From Hormoscilla sp. (GTDB taxonomy: Bacteria > Cyanobacteriota > Cyanobacteriia > Cyanobacteriales > Desertifilaceae), in NCBI GenBank assembly GCA_051439505.1, contig JBFRWI010000125.1:1-35002 (forward strand): a DNA stretch of 35,002 nt, given 5' to 3'. Below, one piece after another: positions 12,715 through 34,166 of the stretch; the first letter of the stretch is position 1, and each line of letters starts with the position of its first letter. The position numbers and the translations under genes were made by a program. The notes under the pieces are model-generated. The model made no database searches, was not told the DNA's origin, and saw only the letters and a program-made list of their open reading frames with translations.

Positions 12715-13620
12715 CTAGCATTGGGATATGAATGGTATCCCGCCTGCCCAACTCCAAATTATACAGGGCGTGACTGCTGTCCAAAATAAAGCATTCCCTA
12801 ATGCTAATTTCCCCGAAACCGTCCAGTGCCTCTGCATGATTCCTTGCAAAATCCAGCGGTCTATAGGCATAATCAGCATCCACATCAAAGCTATCCATGC
12901 ACAGCCTAGCCAAAAGATAATCCATCTTATGTTACTATTAAATAACGAGAAAAATCTGTTTGTAAATAACAATTCCAGATTATCTACATCCTCGGACAAG
13001 TATACTCCTCTTGTCGCCAATGCTGCAGTTGCCAACGCCGGGGCTTCTCCTCCTATGACCACCGAATTAATCTTCACTTTCCGGAAAGCCGCATCGGCAA
13101 TTATCCCCGGGCTAACCGGTGCTTCCCCATCAGTAACTAGGAGTAATTCTCGACAGCGGCCTGGAATATTGCTCAGGGCATTAGTTGCCTCTTCAATGGC
13201 TAAGTCGAGATTGGTGGTACTGGCAACAATTTGTTGGGGGAGATTGGGATTTCGCAAAGCTTGGGTTAATTCAGCCTTCACCTGTTGGCTGTCGCTGTTA
13301 AAACCATTAGTTAAGGGTTTCACGACACCGCCAAAGCCAAATACCTGCACCTGGTTGGGTTGGCGCAGGATGTCAGGAGAATTTTTCTCCAGATAGGCTG
13401 ACACTGCTTGCACTTCTTGTGCCATAATCGTACCCGGAGCATTGAAGCTCCCAGCACCGTAGGTGCTGCTACTTAAATCTAAGGCGATCGCCACTGCGAC
13501 TGGGGGTCTGCCAAAACCCAACAGCCCGAACAGTAAAGCTGCCAATAAGCAAGCACCCAAGATCATTAACGGAATTTGAAACAGTGGATATAGCCACAAA
13601 GGGCGACGATAATTATTCAC
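12715..13620 (-). CDS. Membrane-anchored von Willebrand factor A domain protein
   Basis: MIDAS motif ALDLSSST, TTNL and LLVTDG; one N-terminal and two C-terminal TM helices. Confidence 0.85.
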   Translation of the reverse strand: MNNYRRPLWLYPLFQIPLMILGACLLAALLFGLLGFGRPPVAVAIALDLSSSTYGAGSFNAPGTIMAQEVQAVSAYLEKNSPDILRQPNQVQVFGFGGVVKPLTNGFNSDSQQVKAELTQALRNPNLPQQIVASTTNLDLAIEEATNALSNIPGRCRELLLVTDGEAPVSPGIIADAAFRKVKINSVVIGGEAPALATAALATRGVYLSEDVDNLELLFTNRFFSLFNSNIRWIIFWLGCAWIALMWMLIMPIDRWILQGIMQRHWTVSGKLALGNALFWTAVTPCIIWSWAGGIPFISQC

Positions 13621-13626
13621 TGGTTT

Positions 13627-13711
13627 GAGAATTGAGCAATTGTTAATTGAGCAATTGTTAATTGAGAAAAGCCATTAGCCATTAGCCATTAGCCATTCTC
13701 AATTAGCCATT
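13627..13711. repeat. Short tandemly repeated sequences (STRR-like heptamers)
   Basis: About four GCCATTA units plus AATTGAGCAATTGTT repeats. Confidence 0.7.
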
Positions 13712-24255: not shown

Positions 24256-25395
24256 TTAGTTATGCAAAACAATGTCGATCGCCCGATCGATCAAATGAAC
24301 AGCATCCTCAGAGTAGTGATAGGTTTTCGTCTTAAATTTCATATCCTCCATTTGTTCGGGCTGTTTAGAAGGGAAATGCCCGTACTTGTCTTGATACAGT
24401 TGCAAGGTCAGGCGACCGATTTTCGTCCTCTGTCCTGTAGTTACTTGAATGCCCCGTTCTTTGATTCGCTTGGCGACGGAGACGGTTGCCGTGGTTGCAC
24501 TCTTTGCTGTCGGCTTTTTCTTCAAGCTGTTAAATGTTTGGGTCAGTTCGGAGACTGTTGAGATCAATTGCGTTTGTAACTGAGTATATCGTCTAGCGGG
24601 TTTGTCGGTAGCCACGGCAATCTCTAAAGCCCTGGTCTGTCCGACTGCAATAAATGTACTGCTGGCGCGAGTCATGGTAGTATAGAGTAACTGGCGAGTC
24701 AGCATGTGGCGATTACTAAGCAGTAGGGGCATAATCACATAGGGAAATTCCGAACCTTGGGACTTGTGGCAGGTCAGACAGAATGAATGCATAATTTGTT
24801 CCAGTTCGGACTGTTTATAGGAAACGATCGCGCCCTCCTGAAATTCTACTCTTACCTGTTTATTTTCCGGGTCAACGAACACAACCTTGCCAGTTTCTCC
24901 ATTCATCACGGTGGGTGCGATGTCGTAGCGATTTTTGAGTTGAATCACCCGGTCATTCACGCGGTAGACGACCTCATTATACTCTACCTCTGTGCTGTCG
25001 GGCAGTCGAGGATTAAAAATGGGCTGAAGCAGCTGATTGAGATTGCTAACGCCACAGATACCTTTCTTTTGAGGTGCTAACACCATCACAGATGCAGTTA
25101 AATCGACTTCCGTTGCTTTCATGGCAACTGCCAATTCCACAATTGCTCGGGCTGTGGCTTCCAGTGTCGGGGTTTCCCACATGGCGCAATCTCCCACATC
25201 CATCCACTGTTTTGCCTGCTTAAACTCGTGCAGTTTTGGTATTTTACCTCTGTTAACATCTTCTGCTGCATAGATAATCGGGCTTTCATCTCGCTGTCGA
25301 TAGATAGTCTCCAATCGGGTTGTGGGCACCATTTCTGAGATTAGCAAATCTCGCAGCACCATCCCGGGCCCAACGCTGGGTAATTGGTCCGAGTG
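24256..25395 (-). pseudogene. RecD2-like SF1B helicase, C-terminal half only
   Basis: The frame opens at SDQLPSVGPGMVLRDL (motif III), then IYRQ, NGETG, TCHKSQGSEF and LLYTTMTRA. Walker A/B are missing and the IS607 right end abuts it. Confidence 0.85.
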
Positions 25396-25493
25396 CTGTA
25401 TTAAACCCTCACAAAGCTAATATTAGCCCTGCGCAAGTATAACATCGGCATCAGAGATGGTAATAACGCCATCTCTAACATCGAAGGCTACAG
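25396..25493 (-). ncRNA. Putative omegaRNA scaffold of copy A; the guide would be flank 25395 downward (CACTCGGACCAATTAC...)
   Basis: CTGTA...TACAG closing stem plus AGAGATGG/CCATCTCT and GCTAA/TTAGC hairpins; covaries with copy B. Confidence 0.65.
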
Positions 25494-25975
25494 CCTGCAA
25501 TGCTCTCAACATGATGTTAAGAGCGCCTACCCAATCTCTCGTAGCGGAGGGGTCCCGGAGCGTGCCTTATGGCCACAAGCCGGGCATTTATGAATTTTAG
25601 AGCCACCTAAATTCCTATGAATGTGGCCACACTTAGGGCAGGTTTTACTTGTGTACGCTTCATTACAACGAACCACCAGTACCCCTTTCCTTTTTGCTGC
25701 TTGTTCTAGATGTGAAGCAAACCGGCTCATGGCCCAAGTAAGCATATTCCTGACAGACTTCCGATTGATCTTTCTATTGGCTTTGACAACCATTTGAGAA
25801 GTTTCGTAAGTGGGAAAAAATATTAACTTATAGCTATTGACTAGCAGACTAGCAGCCTTTCGATGCAGGTCATCCACCAGTGAATGAATTTTGAATCTGA
25901 GCCGGTCGATTGCTTTGTTCAATTTGTAGCGCAGTCGCTTGTTTGTTTTTCCGCTGGCTTTCACTTTTCTTCCAA

Positions 25976-28374
25976 GTTAAACTAAGCCAGGGTGTTACCA
26001 CCCCGACTCGTCTTCAGAACCGGACGTGAGACTTTCACCTCATCCGGCTCCTCAGCAATGCCATCCTTGTCATGGATACGGCAACTACCATCATTGGCAG
26101 TCTTTACGTCGTGGCAATGTTTGTGTAACAGTTGCAGGTTGTCCCACCGGTCCTTACCACCTAATGATAGCGGTTTGATATGGTCTACTTCCCAACTGTC
26201 ACCGTTTCTGAATGTTAATCCGCATTGTTGGCATATGCCCTTTTGCCTCTTGAGTAGTTTAGCTACCCGGTTACTTAGCTCAGGGTTCTTGCCTAGTCTT
26301 GTGCTCCAATATGTGAGGTTCCCGTCGTATGGGCTTGCTTTTCCTTTTACTTTTACATGTCTCACTATCTCTGTACTTGCGTGTAGAGATAGTTCAATAT
26401 TTCCATGTGCATCCCCGAACTCTGTCGATGCTCTGAATCGCCATTGTCCATCCTGACCTATTGACCAGTATTTCTTGGCTATCCATTGTGCCGACTTATT
26501 GGGGTGCCTCCTTTTTGCCCAATTCCACAGGATTCTCCATAGGTAATGATCCAACTCGGAGAATGTCTCCTTGCTTACCCCAGTTCTGAAGTAGTTTGCC
26601 CAACCTCGTATGATCGGGTTGAGTTTGCCGATCAGTGCCGCTTGTGGGGCTGTTTTATAACTGGTTACAATTGCGGCTAACCTTTCTTTGTGTTTACCTA
26701 TGGATTTGTTGCTGGGTTTGATGAGGGTTTTGAATCCTAGGGGCTCCCCCTGCGTATTCTTTCCAGTTCGGTACTTGCCTACCTCAAATTGCCTGACGGT
26801 AAATCCCAGGAAGTCAAAGCCAGGGTTTTCACCACTCAGGGTGTGGGTAGTGTGAGTCTTTTCCGGTTTCAGTTCTAATCCGACGTCCCCTAACCATTCT
26901 GCCACGACTGTCTGCGCTTTCTCAATTATGTCGCGGTTCTCATGCAGGATCACAAAGTCGTCGGCGTACCTAACTACTGTCAGGGCTTTCCTTTTATCCC
27001 TTGCTTTCCCTGCTATATCCTTGACTCTTTCTTCTAGACCGTGTAGGGCAATGTTTGCCAATAGTGGCGATATTACTCCCCCTTGTGGGGTTCCCTTATC
27101 GGTGTAATGAAATTGTCCTGCATCAATCACGCCAGCTTTTAGCCAGGCGCGGATCTGTCTCCGAAAGATTGGTGAGGTATTCAGTTTTTTGAGCAGCGCC
27201 AAGTGGTCAATCCTATCAAAGCATTTGGCAATGTCTGCATCTAAGACCCATTTGGATTTCTGTTTGATGCTGTCGAATATTGCCGCTATTGCGTCGTGGC
27301 ATCCTCGTCCCGGTCTGAAACCATATGAGTTGGGTTCCATATAGGCTTCCCATTCGGGCTCTAGCGCAAGTTTGACCAACCCTTGAAGTGCGCGGTCGTA
27401 CATTATGGGGATTCCTAATGGACGTTTTTCGTCTCTCCCTGGTTTGGGTATCCACACGCGCCGTGCGGGCCTTGCCTTGTTTGAGATTCTTAACTGTCCT
27501 ACCAGTTCTAGACGTTGCTTGGTTGTGAGGGATTTGACCCCGTCCACACCAGCAGTCTTTTTGCCTTGGTTTTCCTGTGTTACCCGTCGTACCGCTAAAC
27601 ATTTGGCTGACCAAGATTTGGTCAGTAACCTCTGAAGCTTGCGGACTGTCCGCTTATCACCACGTTCTGCCGCTCTGTAAATTCGCTTTTGCAGCTTGAA
27701 GACCTTCCGCTCTAGCTTGTGCCAGGGGATTGTCTTCCATTCATACATCGGTTTTTCTGCCGTGTTCATAACGTTTGTACTGCTACTTACAACTTCACAA
27801 TTGACATTACCGTGAGGGCGTCAGCGTATCCTACCTATTATAGATAGGCGTTTGCTTCTCCTCTCAATCCTTCCCGGTCATGACCTGCCTAATGGAAGCA
27901 GAGGTTGCGCCTTTGGTGGCTACTCTATTTATCGACCTTAATAGAGAGCACATGACCGGGTTACTTCGTTCCTACAGATGATTGGTTGTAACTTTAGATG
28001 GATTCCTTACGCCGGGTTTATTGTCGATGCTTACTGGTCGGAACTCAATCCGCCAGCGACCTATATCCTTTCCCTTTTGGGCCAGTGTATCAGCCTTATT
28101 TCACTGGTTCTTGATTACGACGCTGCAAATCTTTGCTTTATGCTCATCATGGCTACTTGCTCGACGTTGACCGGTAAAGGCTACCGATCAGAGCGCCTTT
28201 CACTCCCGCTTTACGGATTGATGCCATCGCTACCGTAGGGAATGTGCTGTCACTCCTGCATCTGGAGGGGTGGACTTTCACCACCATCTTCTGTAAGTTG
28301 TCAGGGCTAATGTCACCCTGCTAGCTGTCCCCTATTTGACATGTGTCATCTAGTTTAAGCTAAACGAATCGCAC
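25976..28374 (-). mobile_element. Group II intron (2399 nt), probably IIB/chloroplast-like class
   Basis: 5' GTGCGATTCG; domain V GAGCCGGATGAGGTGAAAGTCTCACGTCCGGTTC (about 26017-26050); 3' TTAGTTTAAC. EBS1 (28042-28047) is complementary to IBS1 AACTCA. Confidence 0.93.
25982..27769 (-). CDS. ltrA: Group II intron reverse transcriptase/maturase with HNH endonuclease
   Basis: GKKTAGVDG, RPLGIP, SYGFRPGR, DADIAKCFD, GTPQGGVISPLLANI, YADD, GWANYF and DHIKP..GG....NLQLLH..CH. Confidence 0.96.
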   Translation of the reverse strand: MNTAEKPMYEWKTIPWHKLERKVFKLQKRIYRAAERGDKRTVRKLQRLLTKSWSAKCLAVRRVTQENQGKKTAGVDGVKSLTTKQRLELVGQLRISNKARPARRVWIPKPGRDEKRPLGIPIMYDRALQGLVKLALEPEWEAYMEPNSYGFRPGRGCHDAIAAIFDSIKQKSKWVLDADIAKCFDRIDHLALLKKLNTSPIFRRQIRAWLKAGVIDAGQFHYTDKGTPQGGVISPLLANIALHGLEERVKDIAGKARDKRKALTVVRYADDFVILHENRDIIEKAQTVVAEWLGDVGLELKPEKTHTTHTLSGENPGFDFLGFTVRQFEVGKYRTGKNTQGEPLGFKTLIKPSNKSIGKHKERLAAIVTSYKTAPQAALIGKLNPIIRGWANYFRTGVSKETFSELDHYLWRILWNWAKRRHPNKSAQWIAKKYWSIGQDGQWRFRASTEFGDAHGNIELSLHASTEIVRHVKVKGKASPYDGNLTYWSTRLGKNPELSNRVAKLLKRQKGICQQCGLTFRNGDSWEVDHIKPLSLGGKDRWDNLQLLHKHCHDVKTANDGSCRIHDKDGIAEEPDEVKVSRPVLKTSRGGNTLA

Positions 28375-28999
28375 TGAGTTTGTCAAGATGCAGGCACAGC
28401 CTTGTCAGCCGCCCGATGTCTCCCTTGCCAATCTCTAAGATGTTTTCACCGTCATAACCGGTCAAGAAAGTGCGGTTTCCAGGGTCGAGCGCAATCACCT
28501 TATCAGAACCCGTACTTACTACCGGTACATATGAGGGAAAGCAAGCAAACCATTGCCCGCGCTGGTACAGTAATTCAGTACCGTAAACGCATTTTTCTGG
28601 CAACTCATAACCTTTAGCTATAGCAAATTTCAGTTCGCCGACCTTTTTGGAAAACCAAGTGCCATTTCTGTACGCATCATTCTTAAACTGAATAGCCTGA
28701 GACTTACTTCTACAGGATTTGAATCGCAGCAAAACCTTGCCACCATTAGCTTTGCGAGATTGTCTACTAGCACTTTGGGCCTCACAAACTGCCTCTTGTC
28801 TGGTTTTCCCTAGGCACTTTGTCCATGAGTTTTTATGTTCACTTTGCAACTGCTGAATATACTGATCTAAAGACCGACCTTCTGGCAGTGCTTTGCCGCT
28901 ATTATAAAACTCAATGCACTGATTGTAAACCCACCGGTAAGCCGCCAGCCATTGTTTCCAGATAGCGTGTAATTCGGGCTCGGGAAATAGCGGGATTTT

Positions 29000-29500: not shown

Positions 29501-29737
29501 TTTTCAATTTATTGAGGTTATAATGTTCGTGTATTCTTGTTGCGAGCAGTCAATGCTCGTTTCTTTTTCTAATTTATAATTAGAAAAAGTTCTGTCGAAA
29601 AGCGTGATAATACAGAGACTCTTATAATGTTTTGCTACCGACAAAAACGAATCGGTACTGAATTATTGTCAAAATCTGAGAGATGTGTAGGTTTTCGGGC
29701 ACTTAGTTACAAGTCTAGCACTTAGGGGGCCTCGGGA

Positions 29738-29790
29738 GCCCGAACCCTAAAGGGTCCGGCTATGCAAACAAAGCCCGCCTAGGCGGGCTA
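29738..29790. repeat. REP-like double hairpin, related copy at 34091-34142
   Basis: CCGAACCCTAAAGGGTCCGGCTA...AACAAAGCCCGCCT.GCGGGCTA in both copies. Confidence 0.75.
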
Positions 29791-30056
29791 GATTACAAAA
29801 CACCAGATGCTCCCCCTACCAACTTCCCGTCCGGACCGACAATATGTAAAGATTTATTACAAACCACTGCATCAGGCATACAATCGGGAATGGCATCGTA
29901 TAGGATGGTAGGAACTGACATTCCCGCTAACTGGAGCAGGGATAAATGACCGGTGTATCTCGTGCTCGACACTGGCAACATTACTGGAAGAGGGATAAAT
30001 GACCGGTGCTACTCGATCGTAGTTAGTCGTTGAGATAGTAAAGGGGATATGGTCAG

Positions 30057-31094
30057 ATGAGTGGTTCAAAAGTAATTTCTGTTGCCGCTGGCGCAGCACC
30101 TGCTACCGGTGCTGCTGTGTTGGCGGCGATCGCCCCAGCAGTAGGGGTCATCATGGCTACCGGTGCGGTGGTGGGGGCGGCGGGAACGATCGCCCATTTG
30201 GGGGTGAAAGCGGTGCAATCTTACCAGGACCGCCTGCGCCGGGAACGGGAGGCTGCTGAACGACGGGAACGGGATATTCAGCAGCGCATTGCCCAGGTGA
30301 GGGCCCGGGTTCGTTCTAGTTCTGGTCCCCCAAGGGTTTCTGTTAATTTGCCCCCACAAACTAATTCTTCGGCAATTGGATCTCAATCTTCAGATGATAC
30401 TATTAAGGCGGCCCGTCGGGACGAGCAACGGCGGGTTGGCGAACTCAGATCTAGACTTCCTCAGGTGCGATCGGAGTATGAGGCTTTAATCTCTCAAGAC
30501 CTCTTAGATGCCCAAACGGTACGGGATGCTTTGCAACAAACTGATGTTGCTCTCAATGCTGGTAATCTTTCTCAGGCCCAGGCCCATTTACAAGCCCTGG
30601 ATGATGCTCGCATTCAAGTGATGCAGCAGCTCAAAACTGACTGGCTGGCCCAAATTGATTACCTCCACGAACGTCTTCAGCTATTGCGCGATCGCCTCCC
30701 TGCTTCGGTGAGCGATCGTTTGCAAAGGGCCATTGACGATGCTGGCAGTAACTGGCAGCAACTTACCGATGGGGACCTACAGGTTCTGCATCAGGAAATT
30801 AGCGAATTTGAGGCCCAAGCCGATCGCATTTGGTCTGCTGCGGAGAATTTGGTCAATTCTTGGACTGATGTGGGCTATGTGGCCCGAATTGCCGGCATAG
30901 AACAGGGAGATGTGGCGATCGAAGTGGAAACCCATGAGGGGGTGAATACCCAGATGCGGGTGCAGTTCGACGGTCAACAAATAGATCTGGAAGGCCCCCC
31001 CGAAGAGTCTAATTCTTGTGCCGATCGCACCAGAGAAGCGATGCAAATTTTTCAAGAACAGGGCTATTATTTGGAGTTGCGACCAAGTACCTAG
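30057..31094 (+). CDS. Hypothetical coiled-coil protein with Gly/Ala-rich hydrophobic N-terminus; 3' end probably cut by element B
   Basis: 345-aa ORF containing HIP1 sites; the last codons (LRPST*) lie inside the conserved IS left end. Confidence 0.75.
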   Translation: MSGSKVISVAAGAAPATGAAVLAAIAPAVGVIMATGAVVGAAGTIAHLGVKAVQSYQDRLRREREAAERRERDIQQRIAQVRARVRSSSGPPRVSVNLPPQTNSSAIGSQSSDDTIKAARRDEQRRVGELRSRLPQVRSEYEALISQDLLDAQTVRDALQQTDVALNAGNLSQAQAHLQALDDARIQVMQQLKTDWLAQIDYLHERLQLLRDRLPASVSDRLQRAIDDAGSNWQQLTDGDLQVLHQEISEFEAQADRIWSAAENLVNSWTDVGYVARIAGIEQGDVAIEVETHEGVNTQMRVQFDGQQIDLEGPPEESNSCADRTREAMQIFQEQGYYLELRPST

Positions 31095-31296
31095 AAACCT
31101 ACACATCTCTCATATTTGAGGTCAACTTAAGTACGTTCGGGGCAGTTCTATGTAATTAAAGTATTATTTATTTACGTACAGTTACGGTTGATTGTCTGAG
31201 TTATATTGTATGTACAGTTATAAACACGAAGTTAATGAAGCTAATGCAATGCAGCAAAAAACGAGCATTTACTACTCTGACCGTCCTCAATTATAA

Positions 31297-31896
31297 ATGA
31301 AGCATGAATATTAACTCCCAGCCCCGGCAGCTAACCTTTTGGGAGTATATCCAGAGTCCCAAAGAAGGTGCCGAAGAGAAGAGAAAACCACATCGTACCG
31401 AACGCCAGGTGGACAGCGCCGTTTCCTCAAAAGGGAGATTGAAAGATTTGCAGGCATCGAGTTGCCAACTACAACTGTTTGTGATGGAAGGGTCTCAAGT
31501 TATTCCCAACGTGACGATCTTGAGCGACAACCTGAATACTTGCGCCTCCACAACGAGGGCGCAGAATTTATTTCAGAAATTGTCGTCCGGCTCAATTTTA
31601 GACGGCGAAAATTTAAGTCCATTTTGGAACGAATTATCAAGCAGGATATCCAGCGGCTTGTCGTTGCCCACCGCGACAGACTCTGTAGATTGGGATGGGA
31701 ACTGGTTGAGTGGTATTGCTTATACAATGCAGTCCAACTCGTGGTTCAAAATGTTCAGCAGCTCAGTCGGAAACAAAAGCTTGTTCAGGATATGTTGTCC
31801 AGCCTCCACGGTTTCAGTTGTCGGCTCTGCGGTTTGCGAAAGTACAGAAAAAAAGAAGGCTCTCCAGTACGGGAAGAATCCGTTACGACAAAGTAA
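31297..31896 (+). pseudogene. tnpA: IS607 tnpA (MerR-type HTH + serine recombinase), degenerate
   Basis: MKHEY*LPAPAANLLGV...YRTPGGQRRF...CDGRVSSYSQRDDLERQ...LNFRR...VAHRDRLCR...FSCRLCGLRKY. TAA at 31312-31314; YARV->DGRV and GSG->VVR. Confidence 0.85.
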
Positions 31897-33079
31897 TAAG
31901 CCAAAACCAAACAGCGTACTTAAGATTCCTCTTTTTCCAGATCGAGAGCAGCATCTGATTTGGAAACAGTGGCTAGCTGCTTATCGCTGGGTTTATAATC
32001 AGTGTGTTGAGTTTTACAATCAGGGTCGGTCCCTGGCTCCTAAGCAGTCGTTAGATCAGTACATACAGCAGTTGCAAAGTTTACCCTTAAACTCATGGAC
32101 GAAGTGCTTGGGTAACACCAGACAAGAAGCTGTTTGTGAAGCACTTTCTGCAAGTCGCCAATCCCGCAAAACTAATGGAGGTAAGGATAAGCTGCGTTTC
32201 CGCTCTTGTCAAAATAAATCCCAAGCTATACAGTTCAATCCCGGAGCTTATCGGAACGGAAAATGGTTTTCCACTAAAGTAAAAGGCACAACATTTGCGG
32301 TGGCAAAAGGGCATGAATTACCAATGAACTGTGAGTATGGAACCAAGCTTGTTTATCAACACGGGCAATGGTTCGGATGCTTCCCCCAACATTTACCAAT
32401 AACTGAAACTGGTTCCGAGCGGGTGATAGCGCTCGATCCAGGCAATCGGACTTTTCTGACTGGCTATGATGGCGAAAATGTTTTAGAGATTGGCAAGGGA
32501 GATATCGGGCGGCTGACGAGGCTGTGCCTGCACCTAGACAAACTCATCGGCAGGAAAGTCAAAGCTAGTGGAAAAGTAAACAAACGACTGCGGTACAAAT
32601 TGAACAAGGCAATTGCTCGGGGAAGATTCAAGATTCGCTCACTGGTGGATGACCTGCATCGCAAAGCAGCTAGTCTACTCGTTAATAGCTATAAGCTGAT
32701 ATTTCTACCTACTTACCAGACTTCGCAAATGGTTGTTAAAGCCAATCGCAAGATTAACCGTAGGTCTGTCAGAAATATGCTGACTTGGGCAATGGGGCGG
32801 TTTGCTTCTCATCTAGAACAGACTGCTAAACGTAAAGGAGTGCTCATAGTGCGCTGCAATGAAGCATACACTAGCAAAACTTGCCCCCAATGCGGTCACG
32901 TCCACAAGAAACTTGGTGGGTCTAAAGTCCACAAATGTCCTAATTGCGGTCACTCTGCCCCGCGAGATTGGGTAGGCGCTCTTAATATTATGTTGAGAGC
33001 TTTGCAGGCTGTCGCCTTCGATGTTAGAGATGGCGTTATCACCATGTCTGATGCCGATGTTGTACTTGCACAAGGTTAA
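31304..33079 (+). CDS. tnpB: RNA-guided endonuclease TnpB (591 aa, Fanzor-like RuvC motifs, long N-terminal extension)
   Basis: KIPLFP...WLAAYRWVYN, IALDPG (RuvC-I), CNEAYTSKTCPQCG...CPNCG and RDWVGALNI (RuvC-III). Confidence 0.9.
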   Translation: MNINSQPRQLTFWEYIQSPKEGAEEKRKPHRTERQVDSAVSSKGRLKDLQASSCQLQLFVMEGSQVIPNVTILSDNLNTCASTTRAQNLFQKLSSGSILDGENLSPFWNELSSRISSGLSLPTATDSVDWDGNWLSGIAYTMQSNSWFKMFSSSVGNKSLFRICCPASTVSVVGSAVCESTEKKKALQYGKNPLRQSNKPKPNSVLKIPLFPDREQHLIWKQWLAAYRWVYNQCVEFYNQGRSLAPKQSLDQYIQQLQSLPLNSWTKCLGNTRQEAVCEALSASRQSRKTNGGKDKLRFRSCQNKSQAIQFNPGAYRNGKWFSTKVKGTTFAVAKGHELPMNCEYGTKLVYQHGQWFGCFPQHLPITETGSERVIALDPGNRTFLTGYDGENVLEIGKGDIGRLTRLCLHLDKLIGRKVKASGKVNKRLRYKLNKAIARGRFKIRSLVDDLHRKAASLLVNSYKLIFLPTYQTSQMVVKANRKINRRSVRNMLTWAMGRFASHLEQTAKRKGVLIVRCNEAYTSKTCPQCGHVHKKLGGSKVHKCPNCGHSAPRDWVGALNIMLRALQAVAFDVRDGVITMSDADVVLAQG

Positions 33080-33106
33080 TATTAGCTTTGTGAGGGTTAA
33101 AGACAG
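33009..33106 (+). ncRNA. Putative omegaRNA scaffold of copy B; the guide would be flank 33107 onward (GTGTGGGTGCTGAATTCC...)
   Basis: CTGTC...GACAG closing stem and CAAGGTTAA/TTAGCTTTG hairpin; overlaps the tnpB 3' end. Confidence 0.65.
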
Positions 33107-33487
33107 GTGTGGGTGCTGAATTCCGAGACGATCTCCTATACGGGGTTTCCTATATAAACAGATTTCCTCTATACTGGTAGAAAAGCAGTGGGTTGGTACC
33201 GGCGAACGATGGTCCTGGGCCCGGGAAAATGCCCCGGTTGATTCCAGAAAGGAGAAATTTCGGGAAATATTTGGGAATAGGGTTGACATTATTGGGGGAT
33301 AGGATGCTAAAATCAATTTGCGGATGAAAAATTTTGGGCGATCGGGGGTATAATAATGAATGTGGTGGCAGAGGCGCGTTAACGATCGCTTGCCACCAGA
33401 TTTGCTCTTGCCAAAAGGGGATGCCCCGGGTGTAAAATGGGAAATCATCCACCTTTTTCCAGTCACCAAATCACCGGAGGTGTCACC

Positions 33488-34060: not shown

Positions 34061-34166
34061 ATTTGGTACTCGGCCTCGCCGCCGAACGCCGCCGAACCCT
34101 AAAGGGTCCGGCTACATGAACAAAGCCCGCCTGCGCGGGCTATATACATGTATAGGGCTATGCACC

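Follow-up and report, generated by a model that had tools for sequence, protein, structure and literature searches.

A covarying sense-strand fold at the right end of an IS607-family pro-Fanzor TnpB element in Hormoscilla sp. as a predicted omega guide-RNA scaffold

The stretch of DNA analysed here (35,002 nt of contig JBFRWI010000125.1, assembly GCA_051439505.1, from the cyanobacterium Hormoscilla sp.; hereafter the window) contains two copies of an IS607-like element, copy B on the plus strand with its left end at about 31074, and copy A, of the same kind, on the minus strand from about 29717 down to 25393. The question raised by this locus is whether the conserved sequence in which their tnpB genes run out encodes the scaffold of a guide RNA and, if so, where that scaffold ends and the guide begins. 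It is likely that positions 32978-33109 of copy B and 25524-25393 of copy A constitute the right end of an IS607-family element of the pro-Fanzor TnpB type, and that the covarying fold on their sense strand is the predicted scaffold of an omega guide RNA.

The presence of such a scaffold had been proposed in an earlier note on the window, which compared the two copies, and the observations underlying that proposal were borne out. The homology between A and B ends at 25396 and 33106, respectively, after ...ACAG, exactly where the blastn match (79.6% identity over 578 columns) stops. As read from the sequence, CTGTC at 33009-33013 of copy B can pair with GACAG at 33102-33106, and CTGTA at 25493-25489 of copy A (minus strand) with TACAG at 25400-25396. 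The base swapped on the 5' side is the third position of a valine codon in the tnpB frame, being GTC in B, GTA in A and GTT in the copy on contig C174. Two copies with one compensatory swap are weak evidence on their own, and covariation in a larger alignment had been named in the note as a check.

Such covariation was found. Thirteen right ends were located in this genome with an nhmmer profile, and a covariance model (R1) built from 11 in-genome copies gave 96 matches in 9 of 61 genomes, namely this genome, all four congeners (G001-G004) and four other genera of the same order; with the stricter filters of that search no match was obtained in 52 of the 61. Two alignments were used, a model-fitted alignment of 95 copies, 83 of them distinct (A3), and a sequence-only MAFFT alignment of 20 diverse copies on which the structure was written by hand (A4), the latter being made because A3 had been fitted to the model. 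In A3, 91.0% of the cells are paired as compared with 79.9% in shuffled alignments, and the covariation score is 0.367 against 0.180, neither value being reached in any of 500 shuffles; the score of the slid controls is at most 0.069. The whole structure scores 0.415 in A4 against 0.189 in shuffles (again reached by 0 of 500), and sliding the 3' partners by one to three columns lowers the score to 0.105 or less, so that in both alignments the slid controls lie 4-8 times below the observed value.

The changes are spread over the structure. The helix of CTGTC with GACAG and its counterparts, here termed the closing helix, is 91.7% paired in A4, with both sides changed at four of six pairs; the four varying pairs occur as UA (12 copies) or AU (8), GC (12) or AU (8), UA (10) or CG (9), and CG (6), GC (4), AU (2) or UA (1). 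It also varies while staying paired among the copies of this genome (CTGTC/GACAG, CTGTA/TACAG, CTGTT/AACAG, CTGCG/CGCAG and CTGTG/CACAG). An upstream hairpin is 96.6% paired in A4 and shows changes on both sides at four of its six counted pairs, as does a subterminal hairpin at all 10 pairs in A3 and at five of nine in A4. A competing partner for the 3' strand of the closing helix (UGUU/GACA), which is the choice of single-sequence minimum free energy folding, scored 0.137 against 0.125, a value reached by 145 of 500 shuffles, and was rejected.

In copy B the conserved right end (32978-33109, plus strand) begins with the upstream hairpin at 32978-33000, a 23-nt element of the form GCUCUUAAUA-UUA-UGUUGAGAGC that lies within the codons for ALNIMLRA. 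This hairpin, about 30 nt upstream of the structure named in the earlier note, had not been described there; all full-length copies and also the short derivatives can form it, although their sequences differ, with stems such as GCUCUU/GAGAGC, GCGCGC/GCGCGC, GCACGA/UCGUGC and GCUUAAC/GUUAAGC. The 5' strand of the closing helix follows at 33008-33013 (GCUGUC), with 33013 as the wobble position of the valine codon, and the 3' strand lies at 33102-33107 (GACAG, then G); because 33107 is G, the sixth pair (G33008-C) is lost in this copy. Between the two strands lie a middle hairpin at 33018-33057, taken from the RNAalifold consensus and changed on both sides at five of seven pairs in A3, which is long in the tnpB-bearing copies and about 20 nt in the short derivatives, and the subterminal hairpin at 33069-33092 (CACAAGGUUA-AUAU-UAGCUUUGUG), which contains the tnpB stop codon (33077-33079) and, as previously noted, keeps its pairing through G-U wobbles. 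The terminal trinucleotide, 33107-33109, is GTG where 77 of 95 copies have CAC. In copy A the whole scaffold spans 25393-25524 on the minus strand, with the upstream hairpin at 25524-25502, GCUGUA at 25494-25489 pairing with UACAGC at 25400-25395, and a terminal AC at 25394-25393; it scores higher against model R1 (94.3 bits) than copy B does (85.1). The earlier description of a scaffold of about 100 nt that overlaps the 3' end of tnpB thus stands for the overlap, which covers the last 34 codons and the stop codon, and for the closing helix, but the length is about 130 nt at least once the upstream hairpin is included.

The fold is kept by compensatory changes and is specific to the sense strand of tnpB. 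Relative to shuffled sequences its z-score is -4.80 in B and -6.08 in A on the sense strand, against -1.06 and -3.00 on the antisense strand, and it uses many G-U pairs, which would be A-C mismatches on the opposite strand. These properties bear on two explanations that dispense with a guide RNA. As the structure overlaps the end of tnpB and the compensating base is synonymous in A, B and the C174 copy, it could be a 3' element of the tnpB message acting in stability, termination or translational control, or a by-product of codon constraint; this is the explanation to which we give the least credence, since no U-run follows any of the hairpins, seven derivatives without the gene retain the fold in this genome, as do many more in its relatives, and the distance from the end of the helix to the transposon boundary is constant at 2-3 nt, as in guide-RNA scaffolds. 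Taken together, the strand bias, the G-U pairs and the fold in gene-less derivatives rule out codon constraint, and they also make a pure duplex-DNA site unlikely. The recognition sequences of the TnpA transposase must be in the right end, and the near invariance of GCAC and of GTGAGGGTT is what would be expected of a protein-binding site; a right end that serves the serine transposase as a DNA site only, with pairing but no RNA function, is nevertheless very improbable. Hairpins are not required by serine recombinases, whose substrate is duplex DNA; double changes keep the pairing in three separate helices, G-U pairs are used in a fold that is thermodynamically favoured on one strand only, and the upstream hairpin is situated within the coding region, 110-130 nt away from the end.

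Within the guide-RNA interpretation, the point at which the scaffold gives way to the guide has two possible registers. The earlier note had placed the end of the element at ...ACAG; this is not its general end in the larger sample, in which the end is ...CAGCAC in 77 of 95 copies, or in 62 of 73 when each distinct flank is counted once, and the flanks diverge only beyond it, bases +1 to +8 being variable at the DNA level with some preference for A or T at +1 and +2. The first C of the CAC, moreover, lengthens the closing helix by a G-C pair in 18 of the 20 copies of A4. The conserved end therefore appears to lie three bases beyond ...ACAG, and the first base of the guide is probably to be sought three positions further out than in the proposal; the derivation of guides from the flanks, as put forward in the note, agrees with the variable sequence after the scaffold, with the start moved outward by these three bases. 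The A/B alignment stops three bases early because copy B has GTG in place of CAC. This GTG (33107-33109) is probably still part of the element, as the same GGTG end recurs in an unrelated copy of congener G002 with another flank; in addition, a homologue (52% identical) of the gene interrupted by copy B continues with the residues LEW, which fits a flank beginning with TGG at 33110, although both points are weak evidence. The GTG of copy B and of the G002 copy is the reverse complement of CAC.

Empty sites provide a further view of the boundary. The occupied and the empty state were both readable at 14 sites, 13 of them between genomes (mostly insertions in congeners compared with this genome) and one against a paralogous site in this genome. 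The count excludes insertions whose flank alignment stopped short of the junction or met repeats (L022/L038, L037/L043/L023, L063, L066, L067/L073/L078, L080/L081, L085, L104/L105, L106 and the paralogous matches of L029) as well as L084, which has a variant end; for copy B, no empty site was obtained, as the first 292 nt of its right flank are without a match in G001-G004. At all 14 sites the flank begins directly after the GCAC position, and the preceding bases are GAC (8), AAC (1), GAG (2), GGC (2) or GAT (1) and never CAC, so that CAC travels with the element. This result also bears on the original register, according to which the scaffold ends at ...ACAG, the guide starts at 33107 in B and 25395 in A, and CAC is a preferred target sequence rather than part of the element. 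The end of the A/B homology favours that register, as does the lack of CAC in copy B and in two congener copies, one of G002 and one of G003. For the latter the empty site in this genome (GGCAG, then ATGAGATTT) implies an insertion ending at CAG, and in the Fanzor2 RNA the paired bases extend to position 0, beside the guide (PMC11832414). The GCAC shared by most copies, the 14 empty sites without CAC ahead of the flank, the gain of a pair in the closing helix, and ISXfa1, in which a fixed base of the right flank was shown to belong to the scaffold and not to the guide (PMC10711439), argue against it, and the original register is considered unlikely.

Several observations weigh against the preferred reading, in which a guide-RNA scaffold extends through GCAC. 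The start of the guide is placed solely by the point where conservation ends, and in a few copies, namely B and two or three more, CAG is followed by GTG or ATG at the end. Many of the copies are recent relatives, so that counts of cells overstate the number of independent events, and A4, though diverse, samples one family. An inner helix suggested by RNAalifold (GCCU/GGGU) shows no compensatory change and is broken in 5 of the 20 copies of A4, and shifting it by one base gave a worse result (65% paired). The closing helix may be nested or may form a pseudoknot with a local GGC/GCC stem, the GGC and GCC around its 5' strand being invariant. No Rfam family reaches its gathering score at the scaffold region: RAGATH-18, the IS605-orfB motifs, HEARO and all other Rfam models gave no match there, and a search of 32800-33250 at E-values up to 10 returned only two chance-level matches to unrelated families (E = 2.2 and 9.7).

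The junctions are a further difficulty. The left junction is GAG in 11 of the 13 in-genome copies and GAC in copy A and the copy on contig C170, and the right junction is CAC; the coordinates are 31074-31076 and 33107-33109 in B, and 29717-29715 and 25395-25393 in A. GAG and CAC share one base, the middle A, which misfits the identical two-base crossover of IS607, and no GG is found at the junctions, where crossover of IS607 elements takes place at matching GG dinucleotides. Three models were tried. Copy B and one G003 copy are accounted for by an AG core at both ends, which is contradicted by the typical copies, whose empty sites lack CAC; an AC core fits copy A and the C170 copy but not the 11 GAG left junctions; and a core within the left end (GCG-AC-TAAG) is contradicted by the absence of GAGYWGCG from empty sites. 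None of the three fits all copies. The motif before the flank gives a candidate target-adjacent motif (TAM), GAC, which may be recognised next to the guide-matching sequence; the motif is soft, being drawn from 14 sites compared between species of about 90% identity, so that any one base could have changed since their separation.

With this register, the predicted guide of copy B most likely starts at 33110 (33110-33129, plus strand), the register being less certain in this copy, and that of copy A at 25392 (25373-25392, minus strand; TCGGACCAATTACCCAGCGT), the length of about 20 nt being assumed from other TnpB systems. Copy A is inserted in recD2, and the DNA past its right end corresponds to positions 124-184 of the AAA_30 helicase profile and encodes ...SDQLPSVGPG, with the guide covering the codons S-D-Q-L-P-S-V. 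The identification of this guide as recD2 motif III DNA in the earlier note was thus correct, and the guide most likely begins TCGGACC, at 25392, rather than CACTCGG, at 25395. A search of the guides for second targets, also named there as a check, found each guide only at its own site in the genome (the search with guide B having begun at 33107). Neither guide has an exact match in the viral contigs, and guide B has no match in the plasmids. The flank of copy A resembles RecD-like helicase genes on three cyanobacterial plasmids at 85-90% identity; the best of these, from Dolichospermum, was considered as a clean target of guide A and was set aside, as GAC is present but guide position 3 is mismatched.

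This assembly has no intact allele of recD2. The uninterrupted gene of three congeners has GAC followed by TCGGACCAATTACCCAG..., the site context being ...GTGGGAGAC and then TCGGACCAATTACCC...; in G004 and G003 the GAC is followed by the same 20 nt as in guide A, and in G002 by a sequence that departs from them at position 18 only. The standard homing model would make such a GAC-preceded recD2 site a target. The loading of copy A RNA onto copy B protein, which the earlier note had suggested as a route to intact recD2 alleles, would be a reasonable idea; the tnpB of copy A is dead and its own protein cannot be made, the scaffold being intact.

The nature of the nuclease is consistent with these assignments. 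The best solved relative of copy B TnpB is 9B0L, the mimivirus Fanzor2 (E = 6.6e-23), and its residues D324, E467 and D501 have their counterparts in a D, an E and a D in the alignment with the copy B protein, in which the DPG motif (...IALDPGNRT...) and a shifted catalytic glutamate (...RCNEAYTSKTC...) can be recognised, with the RD aligning to D501. A DPG motif in RuvC-I and a catalytic glutamate placed about 50 residues towards the C terminus are the marks of pro-Fanzor proteins, and the pro-Fanzor or TnpB2 clade is mostly cyanobacterial and borne on IS607 elements, according to two reports (PMC10711439, PMC11832414). On its motifs, copy B TnpB is therefore placed in the pro-Fanzor (TnpB2) clade of IS607 TnpB proteins. 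A serine recombinase frame, tnpA as predicted from the Pfam Resolvase match, lies upstream of tnpB. The conserved fold, with its covarying secondary structure, is on the same strand at the 3' end of tnpB and overlaps both the end of the open reading frame and the right end, and the bases adjacent to the predicted guide pair with an upstream segment (GCUGUN/NACAGC).

Omega RNAs of other elements offer points of comparison. In ISDra2, of the IS200/IS605 group, the scaffold is likewise taken from the 3' end of tnpB and the right end, with a guide-adjacent pseudoknot and a guide from the flank, and gene-less derivatives retain only the ends and the RNA; ISDra2 differs from the present element in its Y1 single-strand transposase, the TAM TTGAT, the canonical position of the catalytic glutamate, and a guide that starts at the first base past the element. 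The five guide-adjacent bases pair upstream in both ISDra2 and ISXfa1 (PMC10711439). ISXfa1, which combines a serine recombinase with tnpB, is the closer parallel in several respects, with an RNA of about 150 nt that overlaps the 3' end of tnpB and continues into the flank, has three stem-loops, counts the fixed junction base as scaffold, and works with a three-base TAM that contains the crossover bases (PMC10711439). ISXfa1 lies outside the pro-Fanzor clade and has GG as crossover and GGG as TAM, whereas the element here has no GG, ends in GCAC and shows GAC in its empty sites; moreover, the ISXfa1 RNA has been sequenced and tested, while the scaffold described here is predicted from DNA.

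The mimivirus Fanzor2 has the same shifted catalytic glutamate and is the closest solved protein; in its scaffold the core recognised by the protein arises from pairing of the last five bases, -4 to 0, with a segment located about 190 nt upstream, long stem-loops are dispensable, and the TAM has three bases (PMC11832414). Fanzor2 differs in its 247-nt scaffold with a pseudotriplex, its GGG TAM and its pairing right up to the guide, where two unpaired bases, AC, follow the helix here (PMC11832414). The ISFba1 RNA derived from RAGATH-18 is also a guide RNA of an IS607 TnpB with stem-loops and pseudoknots, but it is a different RNA family, found mostly in Firmicutes (PMC11061315). Since upstream pairing of this kind is present in Fanzor2, ISXfa1 and ISDra2, the closing helix has the place of the expected guide-adjacent pairing.

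By analogy with ISXfa1, ISDra2 and Fanzor2, the RNA would be transcribed with the tnpB message, or processed from it, and bound by TnpB. The closing helix would be the counterpart of the guide-adjacent pseudoknot core of these RNAs. The C-AC behind it, two or three bases that do not vary, would count as scaffold in the manner of the invariant right-flank base of ISXfa1, and the guide would be the approximately 20 nt of flank after GCAC. Excision by the serine transposase would leave a rejoined site in which a left flank ending in GAC or GAG, acting as the TAM, is followed by the right flank; TnpB would cut this site, and repair from the sister copy would lead to retention of the element. For the scaffold of copy A, TnpB would have to come from copy B or from the copies on C174 and C35, the tnpB frames of these three being open and apparently intact.

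The copies in this genome fall into a long type (six copies: A, B, those on C35 and C174, and two at contig ends) and a short type of seven elements of about 350 bp (contigs C169, positions 13334-13686, C100, C116, C10, C71, C210 and C161), which keep both ends and lack tnpB, and many more of which occur in G001-G004. These derivatives, in which the left end and the scaffold are kept and the middle hairpin is shortened, outnumber the tnpB-bearing copies in the genus; they resemble non-autonomous elements, for which both TnpA and TnpB would have to be provided in trans. Among 23 loci examined in relatives, 13 are without tnpB, and six carry a near full-length tnpB whose end lies about 40 nt short of the right end. 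The tnpB homologues that have the fold at their 3' end at these six loci, in a congener and three other genera, show 51-82% identity.

The scaffold is an uncurated member of a well-known RNA class and, as such, an expected feature of a known system. In the literature searched, no description of a pro-Fanzor scaffold was found, ISXfa1 being the tested IS607 guide RNA and the viral Fanzor2 the available structure. It is tentatively suggested, with less than even confidence, that the present fold is the first covariation-backed guide-RNA model for the pro-Fanzor clade, the bacterial sister of eukaryotic Fanzor2, and that it has a junction logic of its own, with a non-GG crossover, a GAC-like TAM, a fixed C-AC spacer that separates the pseudoknot helix from the guide, GTG as an alternative end in copy B, and junctions that share one base. 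If this were true, the sharing of one base would imply a mismatch-tolerant or otherwise unusual serine-recombinase crossover, and swarms of gene-less guide-RNA elements would ride on a few intact nucleases. The pro-Fanzor TnpBs are a proposed bacterial source of the eukaryotic Fanzor nucleases, and the natural alignment of about 95 copies marks the pairs to be kept, a dispensable middle hairpin, the end of the element and a likely three-base TAM, which suffices for the design of tests of compact nucleases. Model R1 can also be used to annotate the elements and their gene-less derivatives in cyanobacterial genomes. As a caution on method, the comparison of two copies gave the right helix and the wrong boundary.

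The remainder of copy B is organised as follows. Its left end (31074-31135, plus strand; GAG followed by TTGCGACCAAGTACCTAGAAACCTACACATCTCTCA...) was set by an alignment of 14 left ends in this genome and lies 21 nt upstream of the start of the A/B blast match. A resolvase-type frame at 31339-31896 (plus strand) matches Pfam Resolvase (E = 2.8e-8), and the open, pro-Fanzor-type tnpB core at 31895-33079 (plus strand) matches PF07282 (E = 2e-19). The tnpB frame is open back to 31304, giving about 190 codons upstream of the conserved TnpB core; this extension (31304-31896) overlaps the resolvase frame and forms one stop-free block against the C174 copy, with 74% identity. The gene cut by copy B (30057-31094) encodes a 345-aa alanine-rich, coiled-coil-like protein without a Pfam match, the last six codons and the stop of which are supplied by the left end of the element; its homologue in genome G011 is about 80 residues longer.

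In copy A, tnpB is split by a complete-looking group II intron in sense orientation (25976-28375, minus strand), and a frameshift is also present about 150 nt ahead of the normal stop. The intron carries an open reading frame for a reverse transcriptase, maturase and HNH protein (27769-25982, minus strand), the end of which is overlapped by domains V and VI as identified with Rfam (26053-25976, minus strand). Splicing of the intron could in principle restore the tnpB message, and the frameshift near 25550 would still shorten the protein. The 5' half of recD2 was not found in the assembly by a PF13604 profile search or by tblastn with a congener protein, a match to PF13604 on contig C204 being a PhoH-like gene instead; the left side of copy A has therefore been rearranged after insertion. 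The DNA that adjoins its left end (29695-29760) does not correspond to this half of the gene and contains another CTAAGTGC motif, resembling one within the left end, together with a palindromic repeat (AAAGCCCGCCTAGGCGGGCT). Elsewhere in the window, the Rfam CRISPR-DR28 model, with a cut-off of 35 bits, gives 36.6 bits for short GC-rich palindromes at 34119-34142 and 29772-29792 (AAAGCCCGCCTGCGCGGGCTA and a near copy); being single and not arrayed, they look like a dispersed cyanobacterial repeat rather than clustered regularly interspaced short palindromic repeats (CRISPR).

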